A stretch of DNA of 64,000 nt from Gemmatimonadales bacterium (lineage in GTDB: Bacteria; Gemmatimonadota; Gemmatimonadetes; Gemmatimonadales; GWC2-71-9): positions 16,314 through 80,313 of the forward strand of contig JANRIU010000007.1 in the NCBI GenBank assembly GCA_033764615.1, read 5' to 3'. The translations under genes and the position numbers were made by a program. Below, piece after piece: positions 22,887-27,754 of the stretch. Numbering within the stretch: the first letter of the stretch is position 1; each line of letters starts with the position of its first letter. The notes under the pieces are model-generated. The model had not been told where the DNA came from and made no database searches. It worked only from the letters and a program-made list of their open reading frames with translations.

Positions 22887-23104
22887 CGGACCCTCCGGCC
22901 GGAGACGCCTCAAGGGTGCCACCGCACGCGTGAGGCGCGGCGACTGGTCCGCATGAAGCGGGCATCACCCCGCGTTCAGGGCCTCTTGCGCGGCGCGCGT
23001 GGCGCCGGCGCGGCGCCGGTCCTCCGGCCCGTTGCTTGCGCCTGGCGCGACTACGTTGGAGCGACTGGCCGACCCGCCCCGACACCACGAGCCCCGATCG
23101 CCCC

Positions 23105-24076
23105 ATGCGCCCCATCGGCATCCTGCACGAGCATCCCGACTGGTTCCGCCCGCTCTTCGCCGAGCTCGAGCGACGCGGGCTGCCGTACGAGCGGATCGAC
23201 GCCGCCGCGCACGCCTACGACCCCGCGGAGGCGGAGGTGCCGTACGCGCTGGTGGTGAACCGCGCGTCGCCGTCGGCATACCTGCGCGGACACGGGCAGT
23301 CGATCTTCCACACGCTGCAGTGGCTGCGGCACCTGGAGCGGCTGGGCGTGCCGGTGATCAACGGCGTGCAACCGTACACGGTGGAGCTCTCGAAGGCGCT
23401 CCAGCTCGACATCCTCGCGGAGCTCGGGCTGCCGTTCCCGCGGTCGCGCGTGATCAACGACCCGTCGATGGCGCTGGCCGCGGCGGAGGGGCTGCGCTAC
23501 CCGGTGCTGGTGAAGGCGAACATCGGGGGGAGCGGCGCCGGCATCACGCCGCACGCCTCGCGCGAGGCGCTCGCGGCGGCGGTCGCGGCGGGGGCGGTGC
23601 CGCTGGGCATCGACGGGACGGCGCTGGTGCAGGAGCAGGCGCCGCTCGCGGGCGGGCACATCACGCGCGTCGAGGTGCTGGACGGCCGCTTCCTCTATGC
23701 CATCAACGTGCATCCCGCCGCCGACTCCTTCAACCTCTGCCCCGCCGACATCTGCCAGACGACCGACGGCGCCGAGCTCGCGCGCGGCGCGTGCGCGGTG
23801 GACGCGGCACGCAACGGCATGCGCGTGGAGCAGGCGCACCCGCCCGCCGAGATCGTCCGCCAGGTGGAGCAGATCGCGGCGCGCATCGGGCTCGACGTGG
23901 GCGGGGTGGAGTACCTCGTGGACGCGCGCGACGGCCGGCACGCGTTCTACGACATCAACGCGCTCTCGAACTTCGTGGCCGACGCGCCGCGCGTCGTGGG
24001 GTTCGACCCGTTCGCGCGGTTCGCGGGCATGCTGGAGCGGCGGCTCGGGGCCGCCGCACACGGTCGGGCGGCGTAG
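23105..24076 (+). CDS. RimK-like ATP-grasp ligase
   Basis: 'VINGV', 'SKALQ', 'YPVLVKANIGGSGAGI', 'LVQE', 'GGVEYL', 'YDINALSNF'. Start ATG 23105. Confidence 0.85.
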   Translation: MRPIGILHEHPDWFRPLFAELERRGLPYERIDAAAHAYDPAEAEVPYALVVNRASPSAYLRGHGQSIFHTLQWLRHLERLGVPVINGVQPYTVELSKALQLDILAELGLPFPRSRVINDPSMALAAAEGLRYPVLVKANIGGSGAGITPHASREALAAAVAAGAVPLGIDGTALVQEQAPLAGGHITRVEVLDGRFLYAINVHPAADSFNLCPADICQTTDGAELARGACAVDAARNGMRVEQAHPPAEIVRQVEQIAARIGLDVGGVEYLVDARDGRHAFYDINALSNFVADAPRVVGFDPFARFAGMLERRLGAAAHGRAA

Positions 24077-24087
24077 CGCGCGGGGCG

Positions 24088-26340
24088 CTACCGGCGCCCG
24101 ATGTGGATCTCCTCGCCGCTCGCCGCCACCACCCGCCGCGTCGCGTCGAGCTCGGTGACGGCGAACAGGTTGAACGCGCTGAACCGGCCCTGCGTGCGCC
24201 AGGCGGTGCCATCCCACCGCACGGCCAGGCCCGAGCTGCCGACGGCGTAGCAGTCACTCGCCGAGCGGCACGATACGTCGAGCAGGATCGCCCCGGTCGT
24301 GAGGTCGCTCGTCGGCGTGATCCACGTGCTCGTGCCCGTGCGCCGCACGATCGTGCCGTTGGTCCCGACCGCCACGCAATCCGTCGCGCTCAGGCAGGCG
24401 ACCCCGAAGAGCGTCACGCCGACACCGGCGCCCGTCGTCTGCGCCGTCCAGTCGGTGCCGTCCCAGCGGATCGCGGTGCCGGCCGGGCCCACGGCGATGC
24501 AGTCGTCGACGGCGGCGCACGCCACGGCGTTCCAGTCGTTGTTGGACTGCACGGTCGCGGCGGTCCAGCTGCCGCCTGCGAGGCGCACGATGCGCCCGAG
24601 CTGGCCCACGGCGACGCAGCTCGTGGTCGTGGGGCAGGCGATGGCGTACAGCGCGTCGCCGGCGGCGGGGTTCGTCTCCGTCGACCACGCCGACCCGTTC
24701 CAGCGCGCGATCGTGCCCAGGCCGCCCACGACATAGCAGAGGTCGTCGGCCGGGCAGGCGATGCCGCGCAGCTGTTCGCCGACCGGCAGCCCCGTCGCCG
24801 GCACGCTCCAGCTCGTGCCGTTCCAGCGCGCCACCAGCCCGAAGCTGCCCGCGCCAAAGCACGACGTCGCGGAGCGGCAGGCGAGGTCGCGGATCTCGAG
24901 CGACGTTCGCGTGAGCGTGGTGACGGTCCAAGCCGTGCCGTTCCAGCGGAGCAGCGCGCCGCCCTGACCGGCGGCGACGCAGTCGGCGGCGGCAGGACAG
25001 GCCACGCCTCGCAGCGACTCGGTGACGCCGCTCGCCTCGGCGCTCCACGTCGAGCCGTTGAAGCGGCGGATCAGGCCGCTGGCGCCCACGACGACACACT
25101 CGCTCGCCCCGCGGCAGCGTACCGCGTTGAGGGTGGTGGTGGTCCCGCTCGTGGAGGCGTTCCACGCGCTCCCGTTCCAGCGGCGGATCGTTCCGCTCGC
25201 TCCCACCGCGGTGCAGTCGGTCGCCGTGACGCACGCCACGCCGAGGAGCACCGCGCTCGTGCCGCTCGAGACCGTCGCCCAGGCGCTGCCGTTCCAGCGC
25301 CGGATCGTCCCCGAGTTCCCGACGGCGACGCAGTCGTCCGCAGCGACGCAGGCGATGCTGCTGAGGCTGGCGCTGCCGGAGTTGAACGATTCGCTGCGCC
25401 ACGTGCTGCCGTTCCAGTGCAGGGCATCAAAGCCGTTCGTGGCCACGCAGGCGGACGCCGACGTACAGCTCACGCTGCCGAGCGAGCCGGTCGTCCCGCT
25501 GGCCTGCGCACGCCAGAGGCTGCCGTTCCACACCAGCACCCGCCCCCCCTGGCCGACGGCGACGCAGTGCATGCTCGTCGTGCAGCTCACGCCGCTGAGG
25601 TTGGTGATGAGGCCGGTGGCCGTCGCGGTCCACGAGGTGAGGTCCCACCGCACGGCTGCGCCGTTCGCGCTCACCGCCATGCAGAACGACGAACCGACGC
25701 AGGAGACGTCGTTGTACCGCGCCGCGCCGGCCACCTGACGCCAGCGCAGCTCGCCATCATCCTGCGGGAGCACCGCGCGGACGAAGACCGTGACGTCGAA
25801 CGCCGTCACCGTATTCGGCACCGACAGCACCACCGACTGCGCGCCCGACGTCTCACCGGGCAGGAGATTGCCCGTCAGCTGCCAGTACGGCTGCCCCGGC
25901 GCCGTGAAGCTGCCGGTGCCGCTCGCATTCGCCGCGCTGATCGTCCCGGAGCCGCCGGTCGCCGTGGCGGTCGCCAGCACCAGGCGGATGCCGTCGGCGT
26001 GCGCCGTGGTGCCGTCCGCGGAGCCGAGCGGCCAGGCCGTGAGGTTCGTGATGGTGACATCAAACGAGAACTGCTGCTGCGCGCCGCTGTAGGCGACGTT
26101 GCTCGACGTGAGCGTGAGGTACTCCCCCTGCCCGCCAAGCAGCACGGGCCCCGCGCTCAGGAGCGCCTGCGCGGCGGGCGCGCACCGCACCGCACGCGCG
26201 CCGACGTCGGCGCGGCAGCTGATGGCGGCGAGCGGCGGCTGGCCCCCGGACGGTGACGAGGGCTCGGGGGAGACGGGCGCCCCGCCACAGGCGGCGACGA
26301 GGAGTGCCGCGGCGGCGGCGAGGGAGCTGGCGGCGCGCAT
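24088..26340 (-). CDS. Large lipoprotein with an N-terminal beta-rich domain and 13 Cys-x5-Cys repeats plus one degenerate repeat (predicted beta-propellers)
   Basis: Lipobox LLVAAC, then about 40-aa repeats L-x-x-V-x-C-x5-C-x-A-V-G-x-x-G-x-x-x-R-W-N-G-x-x-W. Start ATG 26340 overlaps the upstream TGA. Confidence 0.85.
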   Translation of the reverse strand: MRAASSLAAAAALLVAACGGAPVSPEPSSPSGGQPPLAAISCRADVGARAVRCAPAAQALLSAGPVLLGGQGEYLTLTSSNVAYSGAQQQFSFDVTITNLTAWPLGSADGTTAHADGIRLVLATATATGGSGTISAANASGTGSFTAPGQPYWQLTGNLLPGETSGAQSVVLSVPNTVTAFDVTVFVRAVLPQDDGELRWRQVAGAARYNDVSCVGSSFCMAVSANGAAVRWDLTSWTATATGLITNLSGVSCTTSMHCVAVGQGGRVLVWNGSLWRAQASGTTGSLGSVSCTSASACVATNGFDALHWNGSTWRSESFNSGSASLSSIACVAADDCVAVGNSGTIRRWNGSAWATVSSGTSAVLLGVACVTATDCTAVGASGTIRRWNGSAWNASTSGTTTTLNAVRCRGASECVVVGASGLIRRFNGSTWSAEASGVTESLRGVACPAAADCVAAGQGGALLRWNGTAWTVTTLTRTSLEIRDLACRSATSCFGAGSFGLVARWNGTSWSVPATGLPVGEQLRGIACPADDLCYVVGGLGTIARWNGSAWSTETNPAAGDALYAIACPTTTSCVAVGQLGRIVRLAGGSWTAATVQSNNDWNAVACAAVDDCIAVGPAGTAIRWDGTDWTAQTTGAGVGVTLFGVACLSATDCVAVGTNGTIVRRTGTSTWITPTSDLTTGAILLDVSCRSASDCYAVGSSGLAVRWDGTAWRTQGRFSAFNLFAVTELDATRRVVAASGEEIHIGRR
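24091..25716 (-). repeat. Intragenic tandem repeat array of about 14 units of roughly 120 bp
   Basis: Recurring 'gccgttccagcg' and 'cgacgcagtc' motifs on the + strand corresponding to RWNG and DCVA in the protein. Confidence 0.85.
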
Positions 26341-26579
26341 CAGAATACCGTCGATCCGCCGCCCCCGATGATCCCGCCACCGCCAATGCCGCCGCCGGTC
26401 TGCAGCGTCAGGTCGGTGAGCGAGGGGAGCGACTCGAGCTGGGGAGGGGACCACGGCCGCCGGGCGGGTGCCGCCACGGTGGGCGGCGCCGCGGCGCTGT
26501 CGGGCTGGTCGGGCGGCTGGAGCGCGGGACGGATCACGGGCACCTCGGTGGCGGGGCGGCGAATCGTCGCCCACTCCAC
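26340..26579 (-). CDS. Small peptide with a lasso-type leader motif and a Gly-rich core (RiPP-like precursor)
   Basis: Ends RRPWSPPQLESLPSLTDLTLQTGGGIGGGGIIGGGGSTVF*. TGATG coupling to the downstream lipoprotein. Start (GTG 26579) uncertain. Confidence 0.7.
   Translation of the reverse strand: MEWATIRRPATEVPVIRPALQPPDQPDSAAAPPTVAAPARRPWSPPQLESLPSLTDLTLQTGGGIGGGGIIGGGGSTVF

Positions 26580-26632: not shown

Positions 26633-27754
<1,122 letters not shown>

Follow-up and report, generated by a model that had tools for sequence, protein, structure and literature searches.

Gemmatimonadota are abundant in soils, and little is known about their specialised biochemistry. The precursors of peptides that are made by the ribosome and modified after translation (RiPPs) usually show a characteristic signature, that is, a strongly conserved leader followed by a variable core. 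Among the enzymes acting on such precursors, the lasso-type B1 protein that recognises the leader and the B2 peptidase that cleaves it have, to our knowledge, long been thought to serve lasso cyclisation only. Here we examine a 64,000-nt stretch of the genome of a Gemmatimonadales bacterium (GTDB GWC2-71-9; assembly GCA_033764615.1, contig JANRIU010000007.1, positions 16,314 to 80,313), hereafter called the window, in which a short open reading frame (ORF) with a lasso-type leader overlaps the start codon of a lipoprotein gene. We propose that this ORF probably encodes the RiPP precursor of an undescribed, Gemmatimonadota-restricted family, that the window holds a satellite pair whose maturation genes lie at another locus, and that the peptide acts together with beta-sandwich/propeller lipoproteins.

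The closest described systems are lasso peptides and their relatives. Lasso precursors carry a YxxPxL motif at positions -17 to -12 and a Thr at -2 (PMC10368454), and the discrete RiPP recognition elements (RREs) of lasso systems bind [Y/W]xxPx[L/V/I/F/A], the Trp form being typical of the kinase-containing paeninodin group (PMC13381572). A kinase paired with a nucleotidyltransferase is found in the lasso clusters of paeninodin, pseudomycoidin and Bsf, whose peptides carry a polyphosphorylated Ser (the C-terminal one, or Ser3) that receives further decoration, B1 assisting (PMC9266682, PMC10368454). The linear polyphosphorylated peptides (LPP), reported in Bacillota, were the first cyclase-less offshoot of lasso-type machinery to be published (Popov et al., Nat Commun 2026; PMC13381572). 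Finally, RRE-Finder located about 300 lasso-type discrete RREs beside radical S-adenosylmethionine (SAM) enzymes, which were left uncharacterised (PMC7470986).

A lasso-type leader followed by a glycine-rich core

The ORF ends in ...RRPWSPPQLESLPSLTDLTLQTGGGIGGGGIIGGGGSTVF (...APARRPWSPPQLESLPSLTDLTLQTGGGIGGGGIIGGGGSTVF in a longer excerpt), and at the junction TTCTGATGCGC two bases of its TGA also belong to the lipoprotein gene's ATG. An earlier interpretation of this DNA, the sequence-only reading, had called attention to the 79-aa ORF, to its TGATG overlap with the lipoprotein gene, to a lasso-leader register formed by W1, P4, L6 and T16, and to a 20-aa core with 11 Gly and neither Asp nor Glu. 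All these features were found again when the sequence was re-read, and the four leader residues correspond to positions -17, -14, -12 and -2. From the lasso B2 rule we infer that cleavage falls between Leu-1 and Gln+1. The G+C content at third codon positions reaches 0.89 in the precursor frame, as expected of a real gene in a high-GC genome, and the ORF is coding rather than a chance ORF. Translation could begin at any of four GTG codons (26579, 26543, 26537 and 26477), giving products of 79, 67, 65 and 45 aa; since family members usually measure 52-74 aa, the true product may be one of 65-67 aa. Pfam and NCBIfam scans matched no family to either the peptide or the window lipoprotein, and a scan of the window locus for promoters and terminators found none.

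The same genome carries a second peptide-lipoprotein pair, located on contig C42, in which the peptide ends in ...PWVAPELRLLPSLTDLTLQTGGGIGGGGIVGGGGSTVF* and the TGATG overlap occurs again. Comparison of both peptide genes from the PW codons to the stop revealed 12 synonymous and 6 non-synonymous codon differences, five of the latter at variable leader positions; judged against this paralogue, the precursor is under purifying selection. We then looked for the family in 401 genomes drawn from across Gemmatimonadota, the sample used for all genome counts below, and found clear members in 25 of them, often in several copies. These homologues combine the leader motif with the Gly-rich tail, as the sequence-only reading would require. 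A degenerate DNA pattern for the leader, scanned over a 596-Gb species collection, matched 112 stretches when ~17 were expected by chance (an estimate from information content); nearly all of them belonged to Gemmatimonadales, Longimicrobium/Longimicrobiaceae or 'bacterium HR33' metagenome-assembled genomes (MAGs) and had the same type of core. A profile run against 1.84 billion representative proteins returned 321 matches at E<=1e-3. As far as these searches reach, the family is confined almost wholly to Gemmatimonadota. Weak tblastn matches to the peptide (E 0.001-0.01; L039-L043, G033, G190, G113, G293, G327 and G246) were discarded as Arg/Pro-rich frames of other genes.

Leader conservation was measured in the best 150 profile matches, 137 of which fitted a strict leader pattern, and core conservation in 113 cores. 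W-17, P-14, L-9, P-8, L-6, L-3 and L-1 were invariant in the 137 representatives, position -12 was L, V or I, and T-2 was present in 136, so that the register pointed out by the sequence-only reading is invariant or nearly so. Inside the core, position +2 was Thr or Ser in 113 of 113 sequences, while Gly occupied +3 in 89 and +8 in 104. Core length ranged from 13 to 22 aa, with a Gly-rich spacer of varying length, and the C-terminus was mostly G-G-S-T-V-F or ...S-T-V-I-P. The RR pair preceding W-17 was also considered as a Tat signal and rejected: it is often replaced by RK, KK, RQ or KH, and no Tat consensus follows. In ten Longimicrobium MAGs (L073, L075, L076, L101, L105, L114, L115, L117, L127 and L138) the core contains two Cys separated by 6-7 residues, for example APIEADCGVGGSTCF and GGGIPCGSSTVCP, with ends such as ...CGVGGSTCF and ...IPCGSSTVCP. 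This suggests a disulfide or thioether ring in these peptides, other members having only Gly, Ser, Thr or Val there.

Putative maturation genes and the radical SAM neighbour

Neighbouring genes were compared in 22 loci with 10-kb flanks, using our own gene calls and clustering, and families were assigned by Pfam and NCBIfam scans. The recurrent neighbours were a radical SAM protein, lipoproteins of the window type, a TolB-like PD40 lipoprotein, a PqqD protein of ~90 aa, a peptidase of the Transglut_core3 family (B2), an HprK-like P-loop protein and, on the opposite strand, a nucleotidyltransferase of the NTP_transf_5 family. They usually follow the order precursor, radical SAM gene, lipoprotein gene(s), PqqD, B2 and HprK-like gene, with the nucleotidyltransferase gene facing them from the other strand. 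In two class-level relatives, L047 (G105:C3) and L053 (G272:C78), the kinase gene is followed by one for a conserved protein of ~480-515 aa containing ...CQYFGAKEECQYCDINHNW..., which may be a second Fe-S or radical enzyme of the cluster.

In the genome of the window, these genes lie on contig C97, where priA is followed by the radical SAM, PD40 lipoprotein, PqqD, B2 and HprK-like genes and then by the contig end. The final 20 nt of C97 and of C42 are exact reverse complements of each other, and the NTP_transf_5 ORF spans the join. This overlap, together with the ORF that crosses it, indicates that both contigs are adjacent and that the second precursor sits next to the enzyme cluster. Beyond the join come the nucleotidyltransferase gene, in reverse orientation, and then, in forward orientation, precursor 2 and lipoprotein 2. 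The window pair itself lies on contig C9, away from the enzymes, and is predicted to be a satellite copy (precursor plus lipoprotein) of the C97/C42 locus. The sequence-only reading had noted that the 64 kb hold no RRE, peptidase or radical SAM gene of the system, and indeed tblastn placed all matches on other contigs; in the whole genome there is one PqqD and one lasso-type B2, clustered on C97, and no other locus with both.

Family scores agree with these assignments to different degrees. The C97 PqqD protein matches PF05402 with 62 bits. The B2 peptidase matches Transglut_core3 (PF13471) with 55 bits and also NF033537, 'lasso peptide biosynthesis B2' (55 bits, cut-off 33); its Cys and His are conserved, and an Asp or Glu stands at +12 from the His wherever the alignment extends. 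The nucleotidyltransferase reaches 51 bits against PF14907. The HprK-like gene gives a weak match to Hpr_kinase_C (PF07475, 21.7 bits) and 28 bits against TIGR04352, with its GKTT P-loop intact.

The closest companion of the peptide is the radical SAM gene. In 91 non-redundant loci, the precursor was followed by a radical SAM gene in 43 cases, by a lipoprotein gene in 26 and by other genes in 13; the remaining precursors were fused to a lipoprotein (7) or stood at a contig end (2). Gaps between precursor and radical SAM gene ranged from a few to ~140 nt. At the genome level, the radical SAM protein was found in 27 of the 401 genomes, the peptide in 25 and both in 24, and B2 (Transglut_core3) was above the cut-off in 23 of the 25 peptide-carrying genomes. 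A general lack of RRE and B2 proteins in genomes with the peptide, which would have refuted the sequence-only reading, was not observed. The N-terminal domain of the window lipoprotein occurred in 29 genomes, 22 with the peptide and 7 without it. The sequence-only reading had proposed to check whether such peptides consistently precede these lipoproteins; the 26 loci and the seven fusions show this arrangement, the larger group precedes the radical SAM gene, and the TGATG overlap is found in a minority of loci. The link to the lipoprotein as such stands, through in-frame fusions and through this co-occurrence of the N-domain. Considering its position directly after the precursor in 43 of the 91 loci, the radical SAM protein is the predicted class-defining enzyme.

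This protein of ~335 aa begins with MLLGFA.TEHCNLRCPHCIRDD..., matches Radical_SAM (PF04055) with 71 bits and carries the CxxxCxxC motif in MLLGFALTQHCNLRCPHC; the PqqD gene is located two genes downstream. Its C-terminus contains six Cys (PCQ..., GCLSLCC..., PCLRC). The best partial NCBIfam matches, to MftC, ScmE/F and StsB, cover only the N-terminal core and lie far under the cut-offs (63 bits against 265 in the case of MftC). The nearest solved structure is PqqE (6c8v, E 1.8e-9), the partner of PqqD. Homologues fill more than 600 metagenome clusters, annotated just as 'radical SAM protein'. Three remoter homologues (40-43% identity; G097:C56:329-1318, G170:C136:20877-21857 and G270:C5:613753-614748), from genomes in which no peptide of the family was detected, may belong to a sister system with a different precursor. 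At G059:C10:838024-838849, a second precursor that is seemingly truncated (leader match only) is followed by a partial radical SAM gene (230 of 334 residues), which looks like a decaying duplicate of the cluster.

Partner lipoproteins, natural fusions and a proposed mechanism

The AlphaFold2 model of the window lipoprotein (mean predicted local distance difference test score, pLDDT, of 88) shows a disordered linker past the lipobox, a beta-sandwich at residues ~40-190 and ~14 propeller blades. Foldseek retrieved generic tandem propellers as top matches (2ymu, Aip1 (1nr0, 1pgu), Gemin5 and GH74), and the sequence relatives of the propeller repeats belong to the widespread Ycf48/PSII_BNR-like family. 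An alignment of 26 homologues defined the conserved columns of the beta-sandwich domain, and this domain, rather than the propellers, is the predicted system-specific part. The protein fits the lipobox criterion [LVI][ASTVI][GAS]C and is predicted to be lipidated; a hydrophobic segment followed by the lipobox Cys is kept in all homologues and fusions. The N-domain can be present in many copies (9 in G105, 7 in G272, 6 in G148 and 5 in G183), outnumbering the precursor genes. The C42 paralogue is 33-43% identical to the window lipoprotein. Within the same genome peptide cores are near-identical and lipoproteins strongly diverged, which makes these pairs unlike variant-specific toxin-immunity couples.

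In 24 of the best 150 representatives (~16%), precursor and lipoprotein are fused in frame in proteins of ~100-840 aa, the full-length ones measuring ~780-840 aa. The match lies near the N-terminus, immediately ahead of the hydrophobic segment of the signal peptide and the lipobox. The layout comprises an N-terminal stretch of ~20 aa, the leader, the core LSPIGGGGGIGGSTVF, the hydrophobic segment GLLLAAGLLFGIGA, the lipobox Cys and the lipoprotein. Fusions have no internal start codon, and the synonymous variation of paralogues spans the GGSTVF-GLLLA junction; the hydrophobic segments vary and GGSTVF is conserved. Three or four fusion genes stand in tandem in G292 and G101, which represent one genus, and also in other MAGs. 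Such natural fusions argue strongly, as a 'Rosetta stone', for a joint function of the peptide and the lipoprotein.

Taken together, the genes of the cluster are consistent with the following mechanism. The leader has the [Y/W]xxPxL handle at -17 to -12 and the Thr at -2 of lasso and LPP precursors. The PqqD protein, acting as the RRE (B1), would bind this handle and present the peptide to the other enzymes. The kinase would phosphorylate a hydroxyl of the core, the best candidate being Thr/Ser +2 by analogy with Ser3 in BsfA and LppA, and the nucleotidyltransferase may next decorate the phosphate. The radical SAM enzyme, with its PqqE-like core and Cys-rich C-terminal domain, would introduce the class-defining modification into the Gly-rich core, and B2 would cut after Leu-1. 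The window precursor would be processed in trans by the enzymes of C97/C42.

In the fusions, the core occupies the position of the n-region of the signal peptide, which places it on the cytoplasmic side, where the maturation enzymes work. Exported lipoprotein and modified core would in these forms occur in a 1:1 ratio, with the core held against the inner membrane from the cytoplasmic side. With low confidence, we favour the guess that the Gly-rich segment, once modified, acts on the signal-peptide region of the lipoprotein, or is released from it, instead of being a freely secreted antibiotic. No exporter gene was seen among the conserved neighbours of the cluster, in scans that included no hidden Markov model (HMM) search of the loci aimed at ABC exporters. 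Extending this guess, RiPP machinery (RRE, B2, kinase and radical SAM enzyme) might act on the N-terminal region of a lipoprotein signal peptide, the fused core being the n-region and the split form a separate co-translated peptide. In that case the export of a whole family of beta-propeller lipoproteins would be licensed, timed or marked by enzymatic modification and removal of the leader, or the outcome would be a modified membrane peptide derived from the signal peptide. We regard this extension as speculative and rather unlikely; if true, it would connect RiPP maturation with lipoprotein biogenesis in a way not known before.

The features of the window pair and of the two genes flanking it are collected in the table. 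The gene directly upstream of the precursor, on the same strand after a gap of ~53 nt, encodes a light-dependent protochlorophyllide reductase (LPOR; TIGR01289, 443 bits, cut-off 331), a hint that this Gemmatimonadota genome has (bacterio)chlorophyll metabolism; the gene is not kept beside the peptide in other family loci. On the other side, a RimK-like ATP-grasp gene converges with the lipoprotein gene, with 11 nt between the stop codons. It was considered as a graspetide maturase and rejected, as it scores below every curated cut-off and is not conserved with the family.

Table. Features of the precursor-lipoprotein pair and its flanking genes, in window positions
Feature	Position	Strand	Remarks
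Precursor peptide gene	26340..26579	(-)	79 aa from GTG at 26579
Leader recognition and cleavage motif WSPPQLESLPSLTDLTL	26403..26453	(-)	W-17, P-14, L-12, L-9, P-8, L-6, T-5, L-3, T-2, L-1
Predicted 20-aa core QTGGGIGGGGIIGGGGSTVF	26343..26402	(-)	Stop codon at 26340-26342
Partner lipoprotein, 750 aa	24088..26340	(-)	Signal peptide and lipobox MRAASSLAAAAALLVAAC (predicted)
N-terminal beta-sandwich domain, residues 37-200	25741..26232	(-)	Family-specific; conserved Cys pair ISCRADVGARAVRC
Tandem beta-propellers, ~14 blades	24091..25728	(-)	One C-x5-C pair in most blades
Light-dependent protochlorophyllide reductase gene	26633..27688	(-)	
RimK-like ATP-grasp gene	23036..24076	(+)	

Alternative explanations and relation to known systems

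Several observations weigh against the reading of the ORF as a RiPP precursor matured by the C97/C42 enzymes. The window precursor and the enzymes lie on different contigs. With 51.7 against 70, the PqqD protein does not reach the lasso-specific NCBIfam cut-offs, and the HprK-like kinase has a weak family score. The radical SAM protein has no Pfam SPASM match at E<=0.01 and stays under the cut-offs of all curated families, so homology gives no reading of its chemistry. Two carriers depart from the co-occurrence: in G108 the radical SAM gene is missing and the B2 match lies under the cut-off, and in G334 there is no B2 match, both assemblies being incomplete. A search for expression found no public sequencing run containing the precursor stretch. 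In an AlphaFold2 model of a natural fusion, used as a stand-in for the complex, the leader and core were disordered (residues 1-56, pLDDT ~33), with no confident contact to the lipoprotein, and docking is neither supported nor excluded by it. Finally, a fused core that stays cytoplasmic is a poor fit with a secreted peptide that binds its own lipoprotein.

These reservations have to be set against what other explanations would require. One of them is a linear peptide of the LPP/paeninodin kind, phosphorylated and possibly glycosylated, in which the kinase defines the class and the radical SAM enzyme is accessory or acts elsewhere, for instance on the lipoproteins. The combination of RRE, HprK-like kinase and NTP_transf_5 protein is indeed the conserved core of LPP and phosphorylated lasso clusters (with polyphosphorylated Ser3), position +2 of the core is an invariant Thr/Ser, and there is no cyclase. 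Yet the radical SAM gene is the most tightly linked of all, being the next gene in 43 of 91 loci and present in 24 of 25 carrier genomes, while the kinase match is weak. Moreover, LPP relies on an SpI-type peptidase and an MsbA-like exporter, whereas here there is a B2. Neither an SpI-like (SipW-type) peptidase nor an MsbA-like exporter was among the conserved neighbours of the 22 loci, although no HMM search was aimed at S26 peptidases or ABC exporters. We consider this explanation unlikely. A true lasso precursor, with an Asn-synthetase-like cyclase supplied from another place in the genome, might be invoked because leader, B1 and B2 are all lasso-type, because the genome has two full-length Asn_synthase genes (contigs C45 and C40) and because an Asp or Glu is present at positions 7-9 in 24 of the 113 family cores. 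However, these acidic residues are not conserved in the family, and the window and C42 cores have no Asp or Glu at all. Both Asn synthases start with MCGI..., the nucleophile of class-II amidotransferases, as ordinary glutamine-dependent AsnB enzymes do, and tblastn with them found no homologue in ~100 family loci, where the gene that tracks the peptide encodes a radical SAM protein. Lacking both a macrolactam synthetase and an acidic core residue, the product would not be a lasso peptide, in agreement with the sequence-only reading, which had judged a lasso macrolactam impossible; we give this explanation almost no credence.

It could also be argued that the peptide is an export element and not a RiPP, its likeness to lasso precursors being incidental. 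In this case it would be a detached or extended N-region of a lipoprotein signal peptide, or a double-glycine leader for a C39 peptidase-transporter. The position directly ahead of a hydrophobic segment and lipobox in the fused representatives, a core start (...TGG) that loosely resembles a Gly-Gly site, and the overlap of both copies in this genome with a lipoprotein start codon speak for it. On the other hand, the leader agrees exactly with the RRE and B2 rule at positions -17, -14, -12 and -2, the genes for the peptide, the radical SAM protein, PqqD and B2 co-occur by locus as well as by genome, and about half of the precursors precede the radical SAM gene and not a lipoprotein gene. The double-glycine variant was rejected on two counts: the comparison of neighbours in the 22 loci showed no conserved C39 or ABC transporter gene, and Gly-Gly is missing from the fused subfamily (TL|ASAIGG, TL|LSPIGG). 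An export element thus seems very improbable, and a RiPP precursor matured by RRE, B2 and radical SAM enzyme remains the preferred explanation.

The observations of the sequence-only reading were confirmed. Its interpretation of a lasso-type leader, a putative processing in trans by RRE-dependent machinery and a non-lasso product linked to the lipoprotein is supported by the enzyme cluster and the fusions, and the system would be an undescribed, phylum-wide, cyclase-less, lasso-derived radical SAM RiPP. Full-text literature searches found no description of it; their coverage was incomplete, and novelty is not proven by them. The family has hundreds of members in soil and sediment metagenomes. 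If our proposal is true, a radical SAM enzyme would have been coupled to a lasso-type front end throughout a Gram-negative phylum. The family would then stand for a new class of RiPPs, unusual for a Gly-rich core with almost no side chains, and would raise the question of what chemistry a radical SAM enzyme performs on such a core. We found no RiPP precedent for the recurrent fusion of a precursor to a lipoprotein signal peptide, which offers a handle on the biological role.

Among known systems, the phosphorylated lasso clusters (paeninodin, pseudomycoidin and Bsf of Bradymonas) share with the Gemmatimonadota family the leader register, a discrete PqqD-type RRE, a Transglut_core3 B2, an HprK-like kinase and a PF14907 nucleotidyltransferase, as well as a hydroxyl residue near the start of the core (Ser3 in Bsf, Thr/Ser +2 here). 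In contrast to them, the family has no macrolactam synthetase (C) and, among its conserved neighbours, no ABC exporter (D), and the window core has no acidic residue at 7-9; instead, a radical SAM gene adjoins the precursor, and there are two kinds of lipoprotein, with the precursor coupled or fused to one of them. LPP is similar in being cyclase-less, in the binding of a [Y/W]xxP leader by the RRE and in having an HprK-like kinase, an NTP transferase and a product presumed to be linear. LPP has a Tyr-type leader, lacks a radical SAM enzyme and is reported from capsule loci of Bacillota, whereas the Gemmatimonadota family has a Trp-type leader, a B2, a radical SAM neighbour and lipoprotein partners. 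A stand-alone PqqD accompanied by a radical SAM enzyme of the PqqE/MftC/ScmE-F neighbourhood is also found in PqqE/PqqD, MftC/MftB and the SynChlorMet ScmC/D/E/F cassette, and the latter, uncharacterised according to NCBIfam, holds an HprK-like protein as the Gemmatimonadota cluster does. The putative Gemmatimonadota substrate is Gly-rich and ends in Val-Phe, in place of the Glu/Tyr of PqqA or the Gly-Val-Tyr of MftA; its radical SAM enzyme has no Pfam SPASM match, and it is accompanied by a lasso B2.

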